A DNA stretch of 41,216 nucleotides from a virus, in IMG/VR virus record IMGVR_UViG_3300046747_000434, positions 1 to 41,216 of that record. The stretch is one strand, 5' to 3'. The translations under genes were made by a program, and so were the position numbers. Below, in pieces: positions 26,643 to 41,216 of this stretch; position 1 is the stretch's first letter, and each line of letters begins with the position of its first letter. The notes below the pieces were generated by a model. That model did no database searches. It had not been told where the DNA came from and saw only the letters and a list, made by a program, of their open reading frames with translations.

Positions 26643-27346
26643 TGTCACGCAGAGCAAACCGTAGACAGCGATTCCTTTCTTTCGCCCAGCCAGACCCGTT
26701 CGTGATGGGCGGAGCAAGCCGCGCCTGGCGCGCAGAAGACTCCGCTAATGACGGGTCGAATACTACCAGCCTTCCGCCATATATCGGCAGTCTAACGCTC
26801 GTCAAAAACGCAGCCGGTCAGGCCGTAAAATCCGCGTCTGCAAACTTCGGCGGGAAGGCTGTTGTTCCGTTTTTGGTAGCTGGCAACAGGGCGTACAGCG
26901 GATCATTCGCCGTGCCCGCTGCTATGACCGTTATCAGTGTTTGGCGCATCTCTGCAACTAATGCAGGGTTACACGCCATTACCGTATCGGATGCTGTCAA
27001 CACGGGGAACAGTTGCTACTTGGATCTCGGCAACATCTCCGCACAAAAGCTGGCAGTACCGCTCGCGCAAGCGCAGGCGGTACCAATCAAGCTAGTCTCG
27101 GCGTCTGTGTTCACGGCCGCAGGAATCACGCATTACGTAAACAGCCTTACGCCGACCAGTTCGGCCGTCGTCGGAGCGCTCACGGGCGACAAGTTTACGC
27201 TTGGCGCGATCACGGCCGTCGGCACATACGTCGCCACGGGCGAATGGAGAAAAACTGCGCAGTGGGACAGGGCGCTATCCAACGCCGAGGTAGGCGCACA
27301 GCTTGCCGTACTCGGAACCCAAGAAGGAATCGTCATAGCCCCATAG
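26642..27346 (+). CDS. Hypothetical tail-associated protein, 234 aa (possible LamG/concanavalin-like fold)
   Basis: TGATG coupling to the tailspike gene. The C-terminal WDRALSNAEVGAQL resembles the ending of Laminin_G_3 domains. Confidence 0.55.
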   Translation: MSRRANRRQRFLSFAQPDPFVMGGASRAWRAEDSANDGSNTTSLPPYIGSLTLVKNAAGQAVKSASANFGGKAVVPFLVAGNRAYSGSFAVPAAMTVISVWRISATNAGLHAITVSDAVNTGNSCYLDLGNISAQKLAVPLAQAQAVPIKLVSASVFTAAGITHYVNSLTPTSSAVVGALTGDKFTLGAITAVGTYVATGEWRKTAQWDRALSNAEVGAQLAVLGTQEGIVIAP

Positions 27347-27363
27347 CCCCATAAGGAGTACCC

Positions 27364-27666
27364 ATGGATCATCTACTCGACCTCATCCCAGCCCAGCACC
27401 GCCCGATCGCCACCGCGCTGTGGTCTCTCCTGCGCGCCATCCTCGAGTTCGCAGGCGGCACGAGCGCCGTGCTCGCGATGACTCGCGGCGTGCTCAACAA
27501 GGTGCGCCCCGGCCGCACGCGCGCTGTGCTCGAGGCGCTCGATTTGCTGCTCCACCGATTCGCGATCAACACCGAGCCTCTTATTGCCAGGTCGGCACCA
27601 AAGGACTCGATCATTGATCGCATTGCCGACTCTGCCACGGAAATCGTGAACAAGAGCAAACCGTGA
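27364..27666 (+). CDS. Hypothetical protein, 100 aa (holin candidate by position only)
   Basis: AAGGAG RBS. One hydrophobic stretch, IATALWSLLRAILEFAGGTSAVLAM. Lies upstream of the endolysin gene. Confidence 0.45.
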   Translation: MDHLLDLIPAQHRPIATALWSLLRAILEFAGGTSAVLAMTRGVLNKVRPGRTRAVLEALDLLLHRFAINTEPLIARSAPKDSIIDRIADSATEIVNKSKP

Positions 27667-27706
27667 AGCGTCCATCTGTGGCCGCAGTGCAAAGGAGACT
27701 CCGACG

Positions 27707-27871
27707 ATGGACAACGAAGCGAAGCAAGCATACACGCGGATGACAGACGCTATCACCGTGCTCTCGACGATCGCGATGCAGCTGCGCGACGCGGTGACCG
27801 ATCTGCGCGCGGTGTGCCAGGTACTCGCCATGCAGGGCGATCGGGGGGTGAGAGATGCACCCGCAGAGTGA
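27707..27871 (+). CDS. Hypothetical small protein, 54 aa
   Basis: Hand-translated. AAAGGAG RBS before the ATG. Overlaps the endolysin start. Confidence 0.35.
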   Translation: MDNEAKQAYTRMTDAITVLSTIAMQLRDAVTDLRAVCQVLAMQGDRGVRDAPAE

Positions 27872-28280
27872 CACCGCACTACTCGTGCCTGCGTTCTGGG
27901 AGCGCCTGGAGCCTGCCTTGCGCGAGCTGCGCGGCCAGGGATTCCACCCTGTGGTTCACGAGACGCTACGCTCACTGGCGCGCTCTGAGGCGCTCGTTGC
28001 AGCCGGTAAGAGTAAGTCCGTGGGCCCGTCGATGCACTGCTACGGACTGGCGGCAGACGTCGTCTGCGGAGTGCACGGGTATGACTGCAAGCGTCACCAC
28101 TGCCCGTTCTTCACCGAGTACGGGCTTGCCGTCGAGCGTCACCGTTTGACATGGGGCGGGCGGTGGAAGACGCTGGTCGACTCGCCGCACAGCCAGGCCA
28201 TACCCGTAGCGCTCCAAAACAAGGCGCGCGCGATGCCCGCTGACCAGCTAGACGCCTTCGTGCGCAGCGTACTCGGCTGA
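27855..28280 (+). CDS. Endolysin, peptidase M15 (VanY / L-Ala-D-Glu peptidase-like)
   Basis: Zn-ligand pattern H..(SMHCYGLAADV)..(DSPHSQ), typical of M15 cell-wall peptidases. Confidence 0.8.
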   Translation: MHPQSDTALLVPAFWERLEPALRELRGQGFHPVVHETLRSLARSEALVAAGKSKSVGPSMHCYGLAADVVCGVHGYDCKRHHCPFFTEYGLAVERHRLTWGGRWKTLVDSPHSQAIPVALQNKARAMPADQLDAFVRSVLG

Positions 28281-28657
28281 TGGACCCAACAACGTTAGTA
28301 GTCGCAGGTAGCACGATTGCTGTTGGCATCGGCGCTTTGCTCAAGGGATGGGGCAAGCGTGATGAGGCCAGCGCAGCCGGCGTGCTGGCGCTGGTCGGCC
28401 AGATCGAGGCACTGAACGGTCGATGTAACACGCTCGAGTCAGAGGTGCTCGTGCTGCGCGCTGATCTCGAGAAAGCCACCACGGACCACGCTGCAGAGCG
28501 GGAGCAGCGCATCCACTATGAGGGCCAGGTGAAGCTCCTACAGACCGAACTGGCGACCACCAAAGCGGCAGCGCGCAGGCTCACCGAGGAATGGGAACAG
28601 GACAAGCTTCGGGGGCGTCCAACGCACAGCAGCGAGCGTCCGGGCAAGCGGCGCTAG
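28280..28657 (+). CDS. Spanin-like protein (N-terminal TM plus coiled coil), 125 aa
   Basis: LVVAGSTIAVGIGALL membrane segment followed by a heptad-like coil. TGATG coupling to the endolysin gene. Confidence 0.5.
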   Translation: MDPTTLVVAGSTIAVGIGALLKGWGKRDEASAAGVLALVGQIEALNGRCNTLESEVLVLRADLEKATTDHAAEREQRIHYEGQVKLLQTELATTKAAARRLTEEWEQDKLRGRPTHSSERPGKRR

Positions 28658-29505
28658 GCCACCCCCGGGTACAGCCTGTCCAGCAATTCCACGCCCGGGC
28701 AGGCCATGTCGCGCAGTACCTGTAGGCACAGGTTAGCGCTCAGGACGAGGTACCGCTCACCAGCAGCGTAAGCAGCAGCGTCAGCAGCGCGAGCAGCGCG
28801 AGCAGCGCGAGCAGCGGAAGCAGCAGCGTAAGCAGCGCGAGCAGCAGCGTTAGCAGCAGCGTAAGCAGCAGCGTAAGCAGCAGCGTCAGCAGCGTTAGCA
28901 GCAGCGTAAGCAGCAGCGTAAGCAGCGCGAGCAGCAGCGTTAGCAGCAGCGTAAGCAGCAGCGTAAGCAGCAGCGTCAGCAGCGTTAGCAGCAGCGTAAG
29001 CAGCAGCGTAAGCAGCGGAAGCAGCAGCGTCAGCAGCGGGAGAAGCAGCGGAAGCAGCAGCGTAAGCAGCGGAAGCAGCGTCCTTGGTCCCCTCTTTTTC
29101 GCAGCGGTCGGCGGCCTCGCGGCAACGTTGGTGCACTGGCGAGGTGGCAGTGAACAGTTCGCGGAACAGCGTGGGCAGCAGCACACGGATGTGCGCCTCG
29201 GCGATACGGCGCGCGAAGTCCAACCCGTCGAGCGTATCGCTACCGAGCTGGGCGACTGCGATGTCGCGAAGCCCACGCGCGCGGGACTCGTCGCTCTCCC
29301 AGCGCTGCGAGTCGTTCAGCGTGATCTTGAAGCCGCGCACAACGGGGTTGACGCAGGCAGGGTCGTCGCCGAAGGGGAGGCCCATGGCTTGGCTGATGGC
29401 GGCCTCCACGCACATCTTGCCGTCCGGCTTACCCGCGCCAGTGCAAAGACCGCGCGCAAGTATCGCTTCGAATACAGGTTGGTTGAATGCTGATAGATCG
29501 GTCAT
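28654..29505 (-). CDS. Ala-rich periodic-repeat protein, paralog P2 (283 aa)
   Basis: N-terminal domain MTDLSAFNQPVFEAILARGLCTG..., a long AAYAAAYAAANAADAAAY... repeat, and a conserved ERYLVLSANLCLQVLRDMACPGVELLDRLYPG tail. Confidence 0.85.
   Translation of the reverse strand: MTDLSAFNQPVFEAILARGLCTGAGKPDGKMCVEAAISQAMGLPFGDDPACVNPVVRGFKITLNDSQRWESDESRARGLRDIAVAQLGSDTLDGLDFARRIAEAHIRVLLPTLFRELFTATSPVHQRCREAADRCEKEGTKDAASAAYAAASAASPAADAAASAAYAAAYAAANAADAAAYAAAYAAANAAARAAYAAAYAAANAADAAAYAAAYAAANAAARAAYAAASAARAARAARAADAAAYAAGERYLVLSANLCLQVLRDMACPGVELLDRLYPGVA
28756..29083 (-). repeat. GCT-codon repeat array in P2, including a perfect 90-bp tandem duplication (28831-28920 = 28921-29010)
   Basis: The block agcagcgcgagcagcagcgttagc...gcagcgta recurs exactly 90 nt later. 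Several reading frames are open across the array. Confidence 0.85.
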
Positions 29506-30431
29506 GTCAGGTTGCCTTTCGTGAGCTTCTGAATCTCGTGTCGCACCACCAAGTAGCTAGCCCATAAGCGCTGAGCTACCGGACGCTGGTGAAAGTCCGG
29601 CTTCGCGTACATCACCTCGCGCAGGAAGCCAGGTGGCACCTCGGTGTACTTCTTGCCGGGGTACCGCTTCGCATCGGCGGCGAAAACTGGCGGATCCATC
29701 GGGGGCGCGTGCAGTCCGTGCTCGTCTGCTGCGCCGGAGGCGATGCTGAACGCGTTGAATATCTCATCGCACAGGTCGTTGTGGCGGCCCACCCAGTCGA
29801 CGTTAGTAGTCGCAGAAGATTCCGTGCGGGACGTCGTCCCAGTCACCGAGATCGCAGCTGGGGCACCGACCGTTGGCGCGGAGCCTGGTGCCGTGTTCTG
29901 GGCATTCTTCTGGGGCTGCTCTTTTGGGCGCTCCTCGTGGTCACCTCCACCGGCCACGTCGTCAAGCGACCGCGCAACCTTGCCCGGGCGTTTCGCGGCA
30001 TGCTCGAACCGCTCGTTAGAGTCGTGCTCAGGGTCCTCTGTGACGCCACCAGCGAGCTGGCAGACGCGCAGCATGGCCGTGCGGTCGAGCGCTGTGCTCG
30101 CGATGTATGCGGCCTTGTCGCCAGCGTGAGTTGTCGCCGCGAAGGCGTACTCACGAATCTCACCGCTCTCGTGGATCAGCTCGAACACTCCGCGCCACAA
30201 CCAGACAATACTCGCTCCAGCCTTGTCGGCAACAGGCTGCGCGCACACGAAGATCACATCTTTTTGCACGAGGGTGAGACCGTACGTGAGTAGCGCCTCC
30301 CGTGCGCCGCTTGTCAGCACGTGTTCGTGGCCGACGTATGGGTAGTTCTGATGCGCGTTTTTGCCCGCCTTGTTGACGACAACCGCGCACGCGATGCGCG
30401 CCAGTTTCAGCGCTTTCCCAAGTTCGCTCAC
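29502..30431 (-). CDS. erf: Erf-like single-strand annealing protein
   Basis: N-terminal KNAHQNYPYVGHEHVLTSGAREALLTYGLTLVQ and DKAAYIASTALDRTAML fit the ERF pattern. A disordered C-terminal half. GTGA coupling to the exonuclease gene. Confidence 0.7.
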   Translation of the reverse strand: MSELGKALKLARIACAVVVNKAGKNAHQNYPYVGHEHVLTSGAREALLTYGLTLVQKDVIFVCAQPVADKAGASIVWLWRGVFELIHESGEIREYAFAATTHAGDKAAYIASTALDRTAMLRVCQLAGGVTEDPEHDSNERFEHAAKRPGKVARSLDDVAGGGDHEERPKEQPQKNAQNTAPGSAPTVGAPAAISVTGTTSRTESSATTNVDWVGRHNDLCDEIFNAFSIASGAADEHGLHAPPMDPPVFAADAKRYPGKKYTEVPPGFLREVMYAKPDFHQRPVAQRLWASYLVVRHEIQKLTKGNLT

Positions 30432-31144
30432 AGCTCACCTCTCTTTAGCCTGTCGACCTCAGCCATGAAAATAGGCACTTCAGCGCGAATCCTCGCGATC
30501 ACGGCTTCGTGCCTACGAATCGGGTACGCGCGCAGCTTGAAGCACGGTGCGCAGAGATGCAGCACGAGTAGCGCGCCCCACTCCGCGCCGGTCACCGCCA
30601 GCTCAGTCTGTACCTGCAGCTGGTAGTCCAGCGGCGGCCCCTTAGACCACACAGCAGTGGACTCCGCGCCGCTTTTCTGCGGCTTGCAGTCCTCGGTAGC
30701 CTGGCACGTGGTGGCCTTGATCTGCACGATTGAGAGGCCGAGGTCATCCGCGTTCACGTCGACGCTCTCGACGTGCGGAACGTACAGCTCAAACTTTCCT
30801 CCGGCCTTGCGCCAGCGCACACGCAGATCACTTTGTGGAGTGAGCAACAGGTAGTCCGGAGTCGCACCGAGCAGAGGACACGACGCGTCCACGCGCAGCA
30901 CGCCAGCCTCGTGCAGCTTCCACCCGAACTTGCGCATCGCCATACGTGCAATCGCCGGCTCGAGATCGAGGCCGATGTCGGTCTGCTCGCTACCGGCCCA
31001 CTCCTCGGCGAGTCCGGCCTTCTCCATGCGCAATTGCTCGCGCGTCTTGTACTTCGACTCGCCAAGTATAGCGGCAACGTCGCTGGCAGTTACGAGCAGC
31101 CGGCGCGCAGCGAGCCACGCTGCGCGGTCTGAGCTATGTGTCAT
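30428..31144 (-). CDS. YqaJ-type (lambda Exo-like) recombination exonuclease
   Basis: RRLLVTASDVAAILGESKYKTREQLRMEKAG is a YqaJ N-terminal motif. Adjacent to the annealase gene. Confidence 0.8.
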   Translation of the reverse strand: MTHSSDRAAWLAARRLLVTASDVAAILGESKYKTREQLRMEKAGLAEEWAGSEQTDIGLDLEPAIARMAMRKFGWKLHEAGVLRVDASCPLLGATPDYLLLTPQSDLRVRWRKAGGKFELYVPHVESVDVNADDLGLSIVQIKATTCQATEDCKPQKSGAESTAVWSKGPPLDYQLQVQTELAVTGAEWGALLVLHLCAPCFKLRAYPIRRHEAVIARIRAEVPIFMAEVDRLKRGEL

Positions 31145-31284
31145 CCGGCCCGCCTCCTGACATTGAGAACGAAATGGTTAGCTACGCCAAGAGCGACCAT
31201 CAGCGCGCAACCAAATGCAGATCCATAAACAGCCTGCGATACGGCTGCGCCAAGCCAACACGCACCGCTTAGCCACAGCAGCAT
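31141..31284 (-). CDS. Small hydrophobic (membrane) protein, 47 aa
   Basis: MLLWLSGACWLGAAVSQAVYGSAFGCALMVALGVANHFVL. TGATG overlap with the P3 stop and ATGA overlap with the exonuclease start. Confidence 0.5.
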   Translation of the reverse strand: MLLWLSGACWLGAAVSQAVYGSAFGCALMVALGVANHFVLNVRRRAG

Positions 31285-32018
31285 CACGCTGCCCCCGGGT
31301 ACAGGCGATCCAGCAGCTCCACACCTGGGCAGGCCATGTCGCGCAGTACCTGTAGGCACAGGTTAGCGCTCAGCACAAGGTAACGCTCACCAGCAGCTCC
31401 AGCAGCGCGAGCAGCTCCAGCAGCGTAAGCAGCAGCGGAAGCAGCGTAAGCAGCGTAAGCAGCAGCAGCGCGATCAGCGGAAGCAGCGTAAGCAGCGTAA
31501 GCAGCAGCAGCGCGATCAGCGTAAGCAGCGCGAGAAGCGTAAGCAGCAGCGTGAGCAGCGTCAGCAGCGCAAGCAGCAGCGTGATAAGCAGCGTGCTTGC
31601 TCCCCTCTTTTTCGCAGCGGTCGGCGGCTTCGCGGCAGCGTTGGTGCGCTGGTGACGCGTCGGTGAACAGCTCGCGGAACAGCGTGGGCAGCAGCACACG
31701 GATGTGCGCCTCGGCGATACGGCGCGCGAAGTCCACACCATCGAGCGTGTCGCTACCGAGTTGCGCGACTGCGATGTCGCGAAGCCCACGCGCGCGGGAA
31801 TCGTCGCTCTCCCAGCGTGGAGAGTCGTTGAGCGTGATCTTGAATCTGCGCACAGCAGGGTGGACACACGCGGGGTCATCGCCGAACGGGAGGCCCATCG
31901 CCTGCGAGATAGCGGCCTCCACGCACATCTTGCCATCGGCGCGTCCCACGCCAGTGCACAACCCACGCGCAAGTATCGCCTCGAATACAGGTTGGTTGAA
32001 TGCTGATAGATCGGTCAT
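31284..32018 (-). CDS. Ala-rich periodic-repeat protein, paralog P3 (244 aa)
   Basis: The ATG at 32018 follows a GGAG RBS and overlaps the upstream stop (ATGA). Same N- and C-terminal modules as P2 and P4. Confidence 0.85.
   Translation of the reverse strand: MTDLSAFNQPVFEAILARGLCTGVGRADGKMCVEAAISQAMGLPFGDDPACVHPAVRRFKITLNDSPRWESDDSRARGLRDIAVAQLGSDTLDGVDFARRIAEAHIRVLLPTLFRELFTDASPAHQRCREAADRCEKEGSKHAAYHAAACAADAAHAAAYASRAAYADRAAAAYAAYAASADRAAAAYAAYAASAAAYAAGAARAAGAAGERYLVLSANLCLQVLRDMACPGVELLDRLYPGAA
31391..31592 (-). repeat. GCT-codon repeat array in P3
   Basis: Encodes AAYHAAACAADAAHAAAYASRAAYADRAAAAYAAYAASADRAAAAYAAYAASAAAYAAGAARAAGAAG. Contains an internal duplication of the DRAAAAYAAYAAS unit. 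Confidence 0.8.
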
Positions 32019-32392
32019 TTGGAGTCTCCAATCCACGGTCCACGACCTAGGCGTTCGCGACCTTCGTCTGACATTGCAAAGCTGACCATCTTATCCTGTG
32101 AGTCGGCCACCCAAGCGCGTCCGCTCGCTTGGCAGTCCCATCCGGTGTAATCGCAGCCGGCTTCGAGGTAGAAGTAGCGCCCGTCCTTGAGGCGACCACA
32201 GCACACCCACGAAGGACCGTCGTTTTCGCCGTCGCTGCTCGCGTAGATCACGTCCACGTCGGCAAGCCCGAACGTATCCACGCTGCAATCACTACCCGCC
32301 GACAGCTCCGGCACCCCGGCGTTGTACGCGCCGCCAGAAAAACCAAAGGCCTCTTTCCAGTCGAAGTCGTTTATCATCTGCTCGAAATTCAT
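32015..32392 (-). CDS. Hypothetical protein, 125 aa (MNFEQMINDFDWKEAFGF...)
   Basis: AGGTGAGG RBS before the ATG at 32392. Coupled to P3. Confidence 0.6.
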   Translation of the reverse strand: MNFEQMINDFDWKEAFGFSGGAYNAGVPELSAGSDCSVDTFGLADVDVIYASSDGENDGPSWVCCGRLKDGRYFYLEAGCDYTGWDCQASGRAWVADSQDKMVSFAMSDEGRERLGRGPWIGDSK

Positions 32393-32503
32393 TTCGTCCT
32401 CACCTGCAGCGCCACATGCGTCACCCACACGTAGCCAGCTGCGATCAACTTGTTGCGTTTCGACATGCCTCATCGTGACATCGCGCCATCGCGACTGCAA
32501 GCG

Positions 32504-32662
32504 CTATTTGAGCTTGCGTGCGAAATCGCCTAGCAGCTGCGCGACGACGGCGCTTTGCGACTGTCGCAACCGAGCGGCTTCCTTTCGCAGGATGCCACGC
32601 ACAACAGGGTGCAGGCGAATGGTGACGGTCACGTACTTCTCAGCGGCTGGTTTTTTCTGCAT
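32504..32662 (-). CDS. Small ribbon-helix-helix protein, 52 aa
   Basis: KYVTVTIRLHPVVRGILRKEAARLRQSQSAVVAQLL fits a strand-helix-helix pattern. First gene of the minus-strand recombination operon. Confidence 0.5.
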   Translation of the reverse strand: MQKKPAAEKYVTVTIRLHPVVRGILRKEAARLRQSQSAVVAQLLGDFARKLK

Positions 32663-32687
32663 GCCGCAACCGTAGTCGCGATTCCGC

Positions 32688-32716
32688 GCTTGCGCAAGCT
32701 GGCAGCTGCGTCTATG
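32688..32716 (+). promoter_or_regulatory. Perfect 12-bp palindrome GCTTGCGCAAGC overlapping a candidate promoter TTGCGC-17-TATGCT
   Basis: Located in the 76-bp divergent gap between the RHH gene and the plus-strand replication operon. Confidence 0.35.
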
Positions 32717-32738
32717 CTCGGCGGACAGGAGATTACGC

Positions 32739-32951
32739 ATGACCCAAGAGAAAAAGCCACGCTCACCCAACAAGACATTTGCGCAGTCGATGCGCGACAA
32801 GCGAGATGCGCTGCATAAGCGCGTCGGAAACCTGTACCTGAAAAGCGAGGCCGCGGCGGACGCAGCGAAGGACGCAGAGGAAGCCTGGGAAGCCGCTAAG
32901 GCAGAGCTTGCTAGCGCTGACGCGTTTCTCGCCACGGTCAAAGCGCCGTGA
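32739..32951 (+). CDS. Hypothetical coiled-coil protein, 70 aa
   Basis: CAGGAG RBS. First gene of the plus-strand replication operon. Confidence 0.55.
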   Translation: MTQEKKPRSPNKTFAQSMRDKRDALHKRVGNLYLKSEAAADAAKDAEEAWEAAKAELASADAFLATVKAP

Positions 32952-33157
32952 CCATGCGCGGGCTGACCACGCCGAGCTGCTATCTGCTCTCCACTGAGTG
33001 CGTGGACGACGACGACCCCACGCGCCCGCTGGAGCGTACCGTGTTCTTCGGCATCGCCTACAGGGTGGCGCCGTATCCTGCTGACAAGCCGCTACCCATC
33101 CCGGGCGTGGCACCTGCGATTGCTCAGGCCACTGTGCTAGAAAAGAGGTATGCATGA
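32948..33157 (+). CDS. Hypothetical protein, 69 aa
   Basis: GTGA overlap (an alternative ATG lies at 32954). Confidence 0.45.
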   Translation: MTMRGLTTPSCYLLSTECVDDDDPTRPLERTVFFGIAYRVAPYPADKPLPIPGVAPAIAQATVLEKRYA

Positions 33158-33279
33158 AGTTCGCCTATCTGCTGCTCGCCGCGGTGTACCTGGGTGCTGT
33201 TGCGATGATGGTAGTCGCGTCCTACAGCGTGGCCATGCTGTTCATCGCGGCAATTCGTGTGCTGACTGGAGGGGTGTGA
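33154..33279 (+). CDS. Small membrane protein, 41 aa
   Basis: Hand-translated as MKFAYLLLAAVYLGAVAMMVVASYSVAMLFIAAIRVLTGGV. Coupled at both ends (ATGA and TGATG). Confidence 0.45.
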   Translation: MKFAYLLLAAVYLGAVAMMVVASYSVAMLFIAAIRVLTGGV

Positions 33280-33512
33280 TGGCTGAGCATGACTACGAGC
33301 TGATCGCGACGGTGAAGCTTCACCGCTGCACGAAAACGGGCTGCTACGCTGCTGTTGTGGTGACGCCCGACCACGCGCGGAGTTGCACGGAGGGTATCGC
33401 CGGGTTCTCCACCGTTGGCGGCGTCATGCAGCGTGCTGGCGACATCGTCATTGAGGAGCTTGGGCGACGCGTGACGGTGGATGAGCTTGTACCGGTGACG
33501 ATCGATGGCTAG
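33279..33512 (+). CDS. Hypothetical protein, 77 aa
   Basis: Internal ATG of ORF 33150..33512 (MAEHDYELIATVKLHRC...). Confidence 0.5.
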   Translation: MAEHDYELIATVKLHRCTKTGCYAAVVVTPDHARSCTEGIAGFSTVGGVMQRAGDIVIEELGRRVTVDELVPVTIDG

Positions 33513-33708
33513 GCCAGGGATCGTCTGGACCAAGGTCGCTGATGTTCGAGCGTTCATGGCTGGCGGAAAGCGGGTGGCCGGGGCGCATGCGCCGAAGTCC
33601 CTTCGCGGCATTCCATGGCCATGCTGTGGACGATGCGGGCTGATATACCTCAAGAACGACCCGACCCGCCGCGCCATAAAACAACCATGCATTACGATCG
33701 AGGACTGA
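33505..33708 (+). CDS. Hypothetical Cys-containing protein, 67 aa
   Basis: Track ORF with an 8-nt overlap on the upstream gene. Confidence 0.45.
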   Translation: MARPGIVWTKVADVRAFMAGGKRVAGAHAPKSLRGIPWPCCGRCGLIYLKNDPTRRAIKQPCITIED

Positions 33709-33711
33709 CGC

Positions 33712-34176
33712 ATGAGTAAGGACAGCGACGTAAGATTCACCCCACAGCACGTGCTCAACGTCGTGCGCGAGTTCGATGAGATTGTGTGCGACCCGTGCAC
33801 GGTTGCGAGCAACCCGGCGGGGGCTAATCTGTTCTACACTGAGGCCGATAACGGGCTTGTGCAGCCGTGGGGCGGAGGGCTTACGTTCGTCAACAACCCA
33901 TACTCACGTGGTCAGATCTTTCCGTGGGCTGAGAAATGCGCGCTAGAAGCCAAGATCGGACTGGAGATCATCCAGCTCATCCCGGCTGACATGTCGACGA
34001 TATACACCAAGTTCCTGTTCGGTAAGGCGAACGCTGTTGCGTTCTGGGACAAGCGCATCGTCTTCGACGGCTCCAATGGCGCGAAGTTCGGAAGCGCTTT
34101 TTGGTACTTTGGCGATCGGCAAGGCCGCTTCAAACGCGTATTCGAGCCACACGCCACCGTGCTATTCCTCCGGTAG
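33712..34176 (+). CDS. dam: Phage-type DNA N6-adenine methyltransferase (Dam family, PF05869-like)
   Basis: RFTPQHVLNVV...VCDPC...GLVQPWGGGLTFVNNPYSRG (an NPPY-like motif)...IQLIPADMST. No cognate endonuclease is present. Confidence 0.8.
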   Translation: MSKDSDVRFTPQHVLNVVREFDEIVCDPCTVASNPAGANLFYTEADNGLVQPWGGGLTFVNNPYSRGQIFPWAEKCALEAKIGLEIIQLIPADMSTIYTKFLFGKANAVAFWDKRIVFDGSNGAKFGSAFWYFGDRQGRFKRVFEPHATVLFLR

Positions 34177-39853: not shown

Positions 39854-40127
39854 ATCTTCGGTAGAAGCGCACTATTGCGCTTCTACGCGTATCTCCGTCT
39901 CGAACGGGATCTTGCACCCAATTGTAACAGTGTGCGCCGAGGCGCTGCATCAGATCCCACAGCTGCCATCGGCTCCAACCGCAGGCGTCCTCTTTGGGAG
40001 GATCTATCTGCTTGAGATGCGGCGCCTCTGCAAGAAGCTCGGCATCCTGCGCGGCGAGTATGGAGCGACCGTGCGGGGTGAGTCTCACGGAGACGTGGTT
40101 GTTGATGTTGAAAGGAATCATCGCCAT
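39834..40127 (-). CDS. Hypothetical protein, 97 aa
   Basis: Track ORF; last gene of the wrap-around minus-strand operon. Confidence 0.5.
   Translation of the reverse strand: MAMIPFNINNHVSVRLTPHGRSILAAQDAELLAEAPHLKQIDPPKEDACGWSRWQLWDLMQRLGAHCYNWVQDPVRDGDTRRSAIVRFYRRFSPPQT
39861..39886. terminator. 10-bp-stem hairpin GTAGAAGCGC-actatt-GCGCTTCTAC at the convergent junction
   Basis: Perfect inverted repeat 8 nt after the collagen-like gene stop. No clear U-tract. Lies inside the 3' end of 39834..40127. Confidence 0.3.
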
Positions 40128-40462
40128 TCCTCACTGAGGTGTAACGGTCCATCGTGGTCGGGCAAAGAAGCCGCTTCCGCGTAGTCACAAGCGACCAACT
40201 CGGCCGCTCGGGATGGTGAGTGTTGTGCCATGTATCGCTCGTGTAGTCGGCAGGCCGTCTCAGCAAGTTCGCGGCTCTCCCAGTCACACGCGCCGAGTGC
40301 ATCCCGTGCATCGATCGCGACCACGCGCGCCTGCGTGGGCATGCCGTTGAGGTACGGGGCAGCTCCGATCCACTGAGCTGACCAGCCGCCCGTGGATGTA
40401 CGCTCCACGCGATACTCTCCGGTGGTCGTCTCGGCGGTGAGCTGGATTGGTTCGAAGTGCAT
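40118..40462 (-). CDS. Hypothetical protein, 114 aa (MHFEPIQLTAETTTGEYRVERT...)
   Basis: Internal ATG of ORF 40118..40537. It overlaps the P4 stop as TGATG. Confidence 0.55.
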   Translation of the reverse strand: MHFEPIQLTAETTTGEYRVERTSTGGWSAQWIGAAPYLNGMPTQARVVAIDARDALGACDWESRELAETACRLHERYMAQHSPSRAAELVACDYAEAASLPDHDGPLHLSEEWR

Positions 40463-41214
40463 CACGTTACCCCCGGGTACAGGCGATCCAGCAGCTCCAC
40501 ACCTGGGCAGGCCATGTCGCGCAGTACCTGTAGGCACAGGTTAGCGCTCAGCACAAGGTAACGCTCACCAGCAGCTCCAGCAGCGGAAGCAGCGTCAGCA
40601 GCAGCGCGAGCAGCGGAAGCAGCAGCGTAAGCAGCGCGAGCAGCAGCGTTAGCAGCAGCGTAAGCAGCAGCGTAAGCAGCAGCGTCAGCAGCGTTAGCAG
40701 CAGCGTAAGCAGCAGCGTAAGCAGCGGAAGCAGCAGCGTCAGCAGCGGGAGAAGCAGCGGAAGCAGCAGCGTAAGCAGCGGAAGCAGCGTCCTTGGTCCC
40801 CTCTTTTTCGCAGCGGTCGGCGGCCTCGCGGCAACGTTGGTGCACTGGCGAGGTGGCAGTGAACAGTTCGCGGAACAGCGTGGGCAGCAGCACACGGATG
40901 TGCGCCTCGGCGATACGGCGCGCGAAGTCCACACCATCGAGCGTGTCGCTACCGAGTTGCGCGACTGCGATGTCGCGAAGCCCACGCGCGCGGGAATCGT
41001 CGCTCTCCCAGCGTGGAGAGTCGTTGAGCGTGATCTTGAATCTGCGCACAGCAGGGTGGACACACGCGGGGTCATCGCCGAACGGGAGGCCCATCGCCTG
41101 CGAGATAGCGGCCTCCACGCACATCTTGCCATCGGCGCGTCCCACGCCAGTGCACAACCCACGCGCAAGTATCGCCTCGAATACAGGTTGGTTGAATGCT
41201 GATAGATCGGTCAT
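40462..41214 (-). CDS. Ala-rich periodic-repeat protein, paralog P4 (250 aa); a mosaic of P3 and P2
   Basis: The N-terminal 119 aa are identical to P3. The linker and repeat are identical to P2 minus one 90-bp unit. The 3' end is identical to P3. Confidence 0.85.
   Translation of the reverse strand: MTDLSAFNQPVFEAILARGLCTGVGRADGKMCVEAAISQAMGLPFGDDPACVHPAVRRFKITLNDSPRWESDDSRARGLRDIAVAQLGSDTLDGVDFARRIAEAHIRVLLPTLFRELFTATSPVHQRCREAADRCEKEGTKDAASAAYAAASAASPAADAAASAAYAAAYAAANAADAAAYAAAYAAANAAARAAYAAASAARAAADAASAAGAAGERYLVLSANLCLQVLRDMACPGVELLDRLYPGVT
40568..40791 (-). repeat. GCT-codon repeat array in P4
   Basis: Same unit structure as the P2 array, but with a single copy of the 90-bp unit. Confidence 0.85.
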
Positions 41215-41216
41215 TT

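Follow-up and report, generated by a model that had tools for sequence, protein, structure and literature searches.

In phage lambda (gam-bet-exo) and in phage P22 (erf with abc1/abc2), exonuclease and annealing genes belong to early operons that run leftward, and small accessory genes precede them. A related arrangement was found in the viral record IMGVR_UViG_3300046747_000434, whose 41,216 nucleotides (nt) form the window analyzed here and provide all coordinates. In its flagged region 28654-32018, genes for a YqaJ-type exonuclease (exo) and an Erf-like annealing protein (erf) lie on the minus strand between P3 and P2, two related genes of which a third copy, P4, lies elsewhere in the window. 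The locus shares with Red and Erf operons the combination of an exonuclease with a predicted single-strand annealing protein, the early leftward operon and the small genes upstream. It differs in that the exonuclease precedes the annealase and that the upstream P3 has no similarity to Gam or Abc. As a preliminary description of this DNA had proposed, the recombination genes lie between two homologous sequences of the same orientation. This bracket is probably explained by the spread of a gene family in combination with gene conversion, without a functional unit formed by the P genes, the exonuclease and the annealase.

Sequence exchange in phages with such systems is well described. The lambda Red pathway efficiently recombines genes that are 22% diverged (Martinsohn, Radman and Petit 2008, PMC2327257), and its products consist of 100%-identical 'hits' between 'shoulders' of lower identity (PMC2327257).

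Mosaic structure of P4

P4 (40462-41214, minus strand, 250 amino acids (aa)) combines a P3 head, a P2 middle and a P3 tail. Along the gene, 41 consecutive informative sites agree with P3 and the next 71 with P2, followed by a tail in which 19 of 20 sites agree with P3. P4 is identical to P3 across the first 347 nt of the coding sequence (349 nt with the two bases upstream of the ATG) and identical to P2 across 315 nt (P4 positions 284-598), and the identity with P3 resumes in the tail. The first switch is located inside a 64-nt block common to all three copies (minus strand; 31672-31735 in P3, 29159-29222 in P2 and 40868-40931 in P4), the second inside the repeat tract. The flanks of P4 are unique, with ORF158 upstream and a different coupled open reading frame (ORF) downstream.

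The mosaic shows that copies of this gene family have exchanged sequence. It had also been claimed that P4 is just such a P3/P2 hybrid as a crossover between P3 and P2 would leave behind. This was not confirmed, since a P3-type head and tail around a P2 patch, together with flanks of its own, identify P4 as carrying a conversion patch and not as a P3 x P2 deletion product. It is the one conversion patch observed, and represents a segmental, non-reciprocal transfer between copies.

The structure resembles the homeologous mosaics of temperate phages (PMC2327257) in that the identity of P4 and P2 is perfect over 315 nt with shoulders of about 85-88%, and in that a Red-like system is encoded in the same genome. 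In contrast to those mosaics, which involve co-infecting phages, the partners here are paralogs within one genome. The copies would thus have exchanged sequence at least once by homologous or homeologous recombination, and P4 would have arisen from a patch of approximately 260-315 base pairs (bp) of P2 within an otherwise P3-type gene, with the phage's own exonuclease/annealase pair as the most likely agent. As annealase/exonuclease systems recombine sequences with up to 22% divergence (PMC2327257), an event between P3 and P2 would be mechanistically possible. The same chemistry could then delete exo-erf through annealing of P3 and P2, which makes a self-deletion of these genes by a P3 x P2 crossover possible.

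Reliability of the assembly

A different explanation would be an assembly artefact, whereby de Bruijn repeat resolution in a metagenome would have produced the P4 mosaic and the perfect blocks and may have affected the copy number as well. The ends of the contig are in line with this. Its first 127 nt (1-127) are repeated as a terminal redundancy at its end (41090-41216), giving a unit of 41,089 bp, and the same 127-mer also occurs internally (31894-32020), exactly at the repeat edge. The contig ends at the very point where P3 and P4 become identical, which lies 2 nt upstream of the start codon. A contig break at a repeat would be the behavior expected of a de Bruijn assembler, and since this break lies at the edge of the P3/P4 block, the circular closure depends on how the assembler handled the 349-nt repeat. 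The overlap is compatible with an assembly at k=127, presumably by a pipeline that is common for such metagenomes. Moreover, genes of this family often break assemblies, and the tandem tracts of 200-310 nt exceed the typical read length. An alternative pairing of the repeats would yield two circles of about 31.9 kilobases (kb) and 9.2 kb.

Nevertheless, several observations make an artefact unlikely. Each copy has unique flanks on both sides, and at the first mosaic junction only 66 nt separate P3-specific from P2-specific sites, so that an assembly at k=127 requires reads that contain the junction k-mers. An independent Logan unitig (SRR26077926, k=31, 1,846 nt) reproduces window positions 29476-31321 exactly and branches at the expected repeat edges. 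Its ends lie where the 31-mers common to other P copies start, which fits a P 5' end and a P 3' tail that each occur in more than one context. In addition, the ratio of non-synonymous to synonymous divergence (dN/dS) of 0.15 between P2 and P3 is as in real genes.

Divergence of P2 and P3 and origin of the bracket

P3 (31284-32018, minus strand, 244 aa) and P2 (28654-29505, minus strand, 283 aa) align with each other and with P4 over their full length, except for the repeat tract. Between P2 and P3, 50 differences were counted in 420 nt of the head (88% identity) and 23 in 132 nt of the tail (83% identity). The copies are 1.8 kb apart, with an in-register spacing of 2513 nt (head) and 2630 nt (tail). 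Their similarity is confirmed as real and far above chance. The long stretches of near or exact identity in direct orientation that had been described were therefore recovered in part: the two genes are direct repeats with the identities given, but the longest exact match between them is 64 nt, and the long exact blocks involve P4.

The synonymous divergence (dS) of P2 and P3 is 0.39 for the head and 0.56 for the tail; dN/dS is low, and the tail peptide ERYLV...LYPG is 100% conserved. Taken together, this indicates two old functional genes and no fresh duplication, and judging from the substitution pattern both are under purifying selection. Despite lying so close together, P2 and P3 have been neither homogenized nor collapsed. 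Their old synonymous divergence implies that deletion products have not replaced the intact arrangement.

The preferred explanation can be outlined as follows. The region would form a single leftward early operon with translational coupling, on a phage contig of 41.1 kb whose ends overlap. P2, P3 and P4 would belong to an undescribed and very large family of early genes in phages and prophages, all three being intact and under selection. The bracketing of exo-erf would be a by-product of the spread of this family through the early operons of one lineage and no conserved functional unit. With three copies on the same strand of a circular map, every pair unavoidably brackets something. The longest perfect direct repeats are those of P3 and P4 (347 nt) and of P2 and P4 (315 nt), and the region enclosed includes helicase and methyltransferase genes. 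Taken by itself, the bracket is nothing unusual for a phage that is proficient in recombination and carries dispersed paralogs.

A more elaborate possibility is programmed diversification, in which the dispersed copies serve as donors and acceptors and conversion driven by the exonuclease and the annealase creates variants of a host-interacting protein, comparable to antigenic variation from cassettes. The clean segmental conversion in P4 would suit this idea, as would the recombination genes between two copies, the tolerance of annealase systems for divergence and tracts that are hypervariable and length-polymorphic across the family. With the pilE/pilS and vlsE cassette systems the locus shares the segmental transfer between copies, seen as one patch in P4; unlike in those systems, no silent, promoterless or partial donors were found here and every copy is a complete ORF. 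All copies are full-length and either coupled or preceded by a ribosome-binding-like (AAGGA-like) site, leaving no silent cassette. Only a single event is visible, P2 and P3 are not homogenized (dS 0.39-0.56), relatives nearly always carry a single copy and the relatives of this Erf are found without the family. Programmed diversification is for these reasons regarded as quite improbable. The same applies to a self-contained device in which the phage's own exonuclease/annealase pair lies among several copies, all expressed, of a gene for a hypervariable early protein and shuffles their segments and tracts. Such a device, if true, could extend its shuffling to the unrelated head of P1, a further gene of the window, via the common GCT-coded tract, and would supply proteins for host targeting or anti-defence whose repertoire changes rapidly.

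Conservation of the arrangement

In all 83 metagenome and viral loci, a single family copy was found within 10 kb, and two full copies were found in only one of 29 genome loci, corresponding to one of 112 loci in total. In this locus, a contig of a Terriglobales metagenome-assembled genome (MAG), the two copies are arranged in tandem (L110, 1287-3040). Conversely, 17 loci were examined that encode relatives of the Erf-like protein with 38-59% identity, and no family ORF was detected in them even at E<1. Useful flanks are present in six of these loci, and eleven span about 3 kb or less. The Erf relatives have HNH, SSB, ORF161-like or small ORFs as neighbors and no family member, as in the orders YqaJ-HNH-Erf-SSB (L086) and YqaJ-Erf (L088). 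Relatives whose exo-erf genes are never flanked by family members had been named in the preliminary description as grounds for refuting its reading, and within the limits of the available data the 17 loci are of this kind. When viral contigs were searched with one protein at a time, the Erf query gave no locus and the YqaJ query one remote locus.

Several points weigh against family spread and conversion as the explanation. The mosaic, the repeat lengths and the absence of deletion variants were all read from assembled sequence, and bulge collapse during assembly may have exaggerated how perfectly the blocks match. The Erf relatives are only 38-59% identical, and most of their loci (11/17) extend over about 3 kb or less. 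The family copy number in relatives may also be underestimated, since multi-copy genomes would fragment at the repeats: 20 of 80 contigs end in the tract and in 32 of 80 the gene lies less than 1 kb from a contig end.

A large family of early proteins

A word-indexed search returned at least 794 relatives of P3, all unnamed save for one evidently spurious source label. With an exhaustive profile search, 2,253 clusters (50% identity) were found at E<=1e-3 and 829 at E<=1e-30. The members are stand-alone proteins of about 175-340 aa throughout. They share an architecture of a conserved head, a hypervariable Ala/Tyr-rich helical tract and a conserved C-terminal helix pair. The conserved head of 140 aa is all-alpha with three conserved cysteines and the motifs G.MC[IV]EAA..., LP[HF]GDDP.CV and LND..W. 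P2, P3 and P4 show the head, the Ala-rich tract and the tail, and match the hidden Markov model (HMM) of the family with E-values of 2e-76 to 5e-91.

The AlphaFold2 model of P3 (mean predicted local distance difference test score (pLDDT) 84.5, predicted template modeling score 0.86) is all-alpha with 11 helices. The head and tail reach pLDDT values above 90 and the tract 47-68. In this model, the tract connects the globular head with the tail, which is packed against the head. A Foldseek search of the PDB gave no fold match (best E 2.2), and the only structural neighbors were uncharacterized viral proteins. No model covering the head was found in Pfam, PHROGs, NCBIfam or PADLOC, also when all 54 family members were scanned at E<=1, and the PHROG matches were confined to the Ala-rich tract. 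A profile search of PDB sequences returned nothing relevant for P2 or P3, exact look-ups of the P2, P3 and P4 products gave no record, and a literature search found no description of the family. A tblastn search with P3 matched Caulobacter phage Cr30 only, and there only in the head region.

Family members were found on viral contigs, and further carriers are contigs from MAGs or genomes of Acidobacteriota, Alpha-, Beta- and Gammaproteobacteria, Actinomycetota and cyanobacteria. Their neighbors are genes of early regions, namely integrases, helix-turn-helix regulators, helicases, methylases and HNH endonucleases. In a minority of loci, recombination genes lie close to the family member: of 48 family loci, six have ERF within 5 kb, four YqaJ, five PD-(D/E)XK nuclease and five AAA_24. 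In a Bryobacterales MAG contig (L104, 6385-7420), the family gene is split within the tract into two overlapping frames, which suggests a frameshift.

These counts also bear on the possibility of a functional link, in which P3, and perhaps P2, would be an accessory of the recombination module and might, for instance, inhibit host RecBCD/AddAB in the manner of Gam or Abc or modulate the exonuclease or Erf. The position of P3 upstream of the exonuclease/annealase pair in the same coupled operon agrees with this, as does the location of the family in early regions, in which recombination genes are fairly frequent. However, the synteny with recombinases is not fixed, none of the 17 Erf-relative loci carries the family, and P4 lies in a different operon with no adjoining recombination genes. 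No similarity of P2 or P3 to Gam-type proteins (lambda Gam, Mu Gam) was found in Pfam, NCBIfam, PADLOC, PDB sequences or folds, nor did P3 resemble any solved structure (Foldseek best E 2.2). P3 is near neutral with an isoelectric point of 6.3, and is therefore not an acidic DNA mimic. The suggestion that the Gam-like position of P3 reflects a role in recombination or nuclease control thus gained no support from sequence similarity or from the few family loci with recombinases nearby, and such a role is considered very improbable.

It is the family that deserves attention. It comprises thousands of clusters in (pro)phage-like contigs and MAGs, with no entry in the searched domain libraries and no known fold. 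The present genome is a rare three-copy case with documented conversion and offers a starting point for studying the function of the family and the reshaping of phage genes by annealases.

Repeat tract

The Ala-rich tandem repeat tracts of P2 (28761-29070, minus strand, periods of 12, 33 and 45 nt), P3 (31390-31593, minus strand) and P4 (40578-40790) use GCT for every Ala codon (69/69, 38/38 and 46/46, respectively; 153/153 together). In the other genes of the window, GCT accounts for 15% of the Ala codons. Among 80 homologs, a single Ala codon prevails in most tracts and two prevail equally in some; depending on the lineage, the codon is GCT, GCC, GCG or GCA. The near-exclusive use of one Ala codon per gene, which differs across lineages, indicates that the tract was regenerated by recent tandem expansion in each lineage. 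The codon pattern implies that short DNA units were repeatedly expanded under constraint at the protein level. In every lineage the tract is formed anew at the level of the DNA, and its length appears to differ between phages that are otherwise identical.

Such changes in length were seen in two pairs of contigs (L053 7089-7955 versus L054 2989-3759, and L074 9917-10717 versus L075 9917-10639). The pairs differ by in-frame tract indels of 96 or 78 nt and show no other mismatch over 3.7 kb, the two members of each pair being from different samples. These indels represent either a real length polymorphism or a collapse of repeats during assembly. Of 80 viral contigs, 20 end inside the tract, all from IMG/VR (L014, L016-L019, L021, L023, L028, L029, L031, L032, L034, L036, L037, L041, L047, L059, L067, L069 and L079), and 32 carry the family gene less than 1 kb from a contig end. 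The tract therefore breaks a quarter of the assemblies that contain it. Both the indels and the contig ends could reflect real instability and are also consistent with short-read assembly.

The tract is comparable to in-frame coding repeats such as those of bacterial contingency-type loci and the collagen-like repeats of phage tail fibres. Common features are codon-homogeneous units of 9, 12, 21, 33 or 45 nt and the in-frame indels of 78-96 nt between otherwise identical genomes, for which collapse is possible. Unlike in contingency-type loci, all unit lengths are multiples of three, so that no on/off switching results. Unlike tail-fibre repeats, the tract belongs to an early protein of cytoplasmic type and not to a surface or tail protein.

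At the protein level, the non-Ala residues of the tract (Y, N, D, R and S) are spaced by 4, 4 and 3 positions, and the periods of 33 and 45 nt reported by Tandem Repeats Finder correspond to periods of 11 and 15 residues. Type I antifreeze proteins form Ala-rich amphipathic helices with a periodicity of about 11 residues, and antiparallel packing of such helices is called 'Alacoil'. The resemblance of the tract to these helices lies in its 11- and 15-residue periods and is structural only. There is no homology and no evidence of ice binding, and the tract links a head to a tail. The occurrence of GCTGGTGA in the tract, which shares 7 of 8 bases with Chi of E. coli, was dropped as a candidate Chi site because the host is not E. 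coli.

Recombination genes and operon layout

The minus-strand order is ORF161, P3, a 47-aa ORF, the YqaJ exonuclease, the Erf-like gene and P2. The order and orientation given previously were reproduced, with all genes on the minus strand and matching ORF coordinates. From ORF161 through P2, neighboring genes overlap by 1-4 nt at each junction (ATGA, GTGA or TGATG), and such start/stop overlaps at every junction suggest that the genes are translationally coupled in a single operon.

The exonuclease (30428-31144, minus strand, 238 aa) matches Pfam PF09588 with an E-value of 3.4e-14 and 53.8 bits (cut-off 22) over profile positions 2-150 of 150, phrog_434 'RecE-like exonuclease' with 1e-31 and TIGR03033 with 3.4e-17. 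As the profile score exceeds the curated cut-off, the predicted product can be assigned to the YqaJ/lambda-exonuclease family of recombination exonucleases. The Erf-like single-strand annealing protein (29502-30431, minus strand, 309 aa) matches phrog_155 'Erf-like ssDNA annealing protein' with 4e-10 over aa 8-136, and it has no direct Pfam match at E<=0.01. Its homologs P0140, P0141 and P0144, in which PF04404 is present, share 53-58% identity in the N-terminal half. The alignment of homologs shows a conserved N-terminal core and a variable C-terminal half. The ATG of P2 overlaps the stop codon of the Erf-like gene (ATGA).

Between P3 and the exonuclease, the 47-aa protein (31141-31284, minus strand) is encoded by an ORF whose start overlaps the stop of P3 (TGATG) and whose stop overlaps the YqaJ start. 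It is hydrophobic, with a maximum mean Kyte-Doolittle value of 1.73 in 19-aa windows, and has a basic C-terminus (RRRAG). No family match was found in the libraries searched, which included NCBIfam. ORF161 (32015-32500, minus strand) is located upstream of P3, its stop overlapping the ATG of P3 (ATGA), and it has no family match in Pfam, PHROGs or NCBIfam. Homologs of ORF161 were found in two other loci (L089, 1-246; L031, 5082-5576). In the first of these, the homolog ends on the Erf start and abuts Erf directly. It may be that ORF161 was the original neighbor upstream of Erf in this clade and that the L089 lineage lacks P3, the 47-aa gene and YqaJ.

At its other end, the operon faces the last plus-strand ORF of the lysis region (28280-28657), which lies 3' of a Peptidase_M15_4 endolysin gene. 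P2 and this ORF converge, and their stop codons share 4 nt (28654-28657). No terminator-like hairpin was found between the two, and a scan of 28000-33600 for sigma-70 promoters and terminators returned background levels only. A megablast search of 27000-34000 against isolated phages gave no match. Long alternative-frame minus-strand ORFs over the family genes (28538-28729, 31141-31359, 40118-40537, 28740-29276 and 31370-31972; MPTGTARHGLP... and LLLTLLL...) were discarded, as they arise from reading the conserved tail and the repeat tract out of frame. A paralogy of a GTG-extended 'transmembrane' ORF with two ORFs of the window was likewise rejected, as it is an out-of-frame reading of the P tail.

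P1

P1 (867-1667, minus strand, 266 aa) has a GCT-coded Ala/Tyr tract (928-1150), a short C-terminal helix and a head unrelated to that of P2, P3 and P4. A head-only HMM built without window sequences gave 184 bits for P2 and -0.9 bits for P1, and the hhalign comparison of the P1 head with the head family reached a probability of 53% over 11 columns. With this head-only score and an unconvincing profile-profile comparison, P1 was rejected as a head paralog of P2, P3 and P4. No Foldseek match in the PDB below E=2 was obtained for its AlphaFold2 model (pLDDT 75). The P1 head belongs to a separate small family of its own (12 hits) with the same architecture of head, Ala-rich tract and short C-terminal helix. 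The P1 tract contains exact matches of 44-55 nt to the other copies. One type of tract is thus present under two head families in one genome, and either moved between genes or converged. In P0284, a member of the P1-type family, the C-terminal part reads RRRLRRRRLRRR..., which resembles an out-of-frame translation of the repeat tract; P0284 is a frameshifted or miscalled relative.

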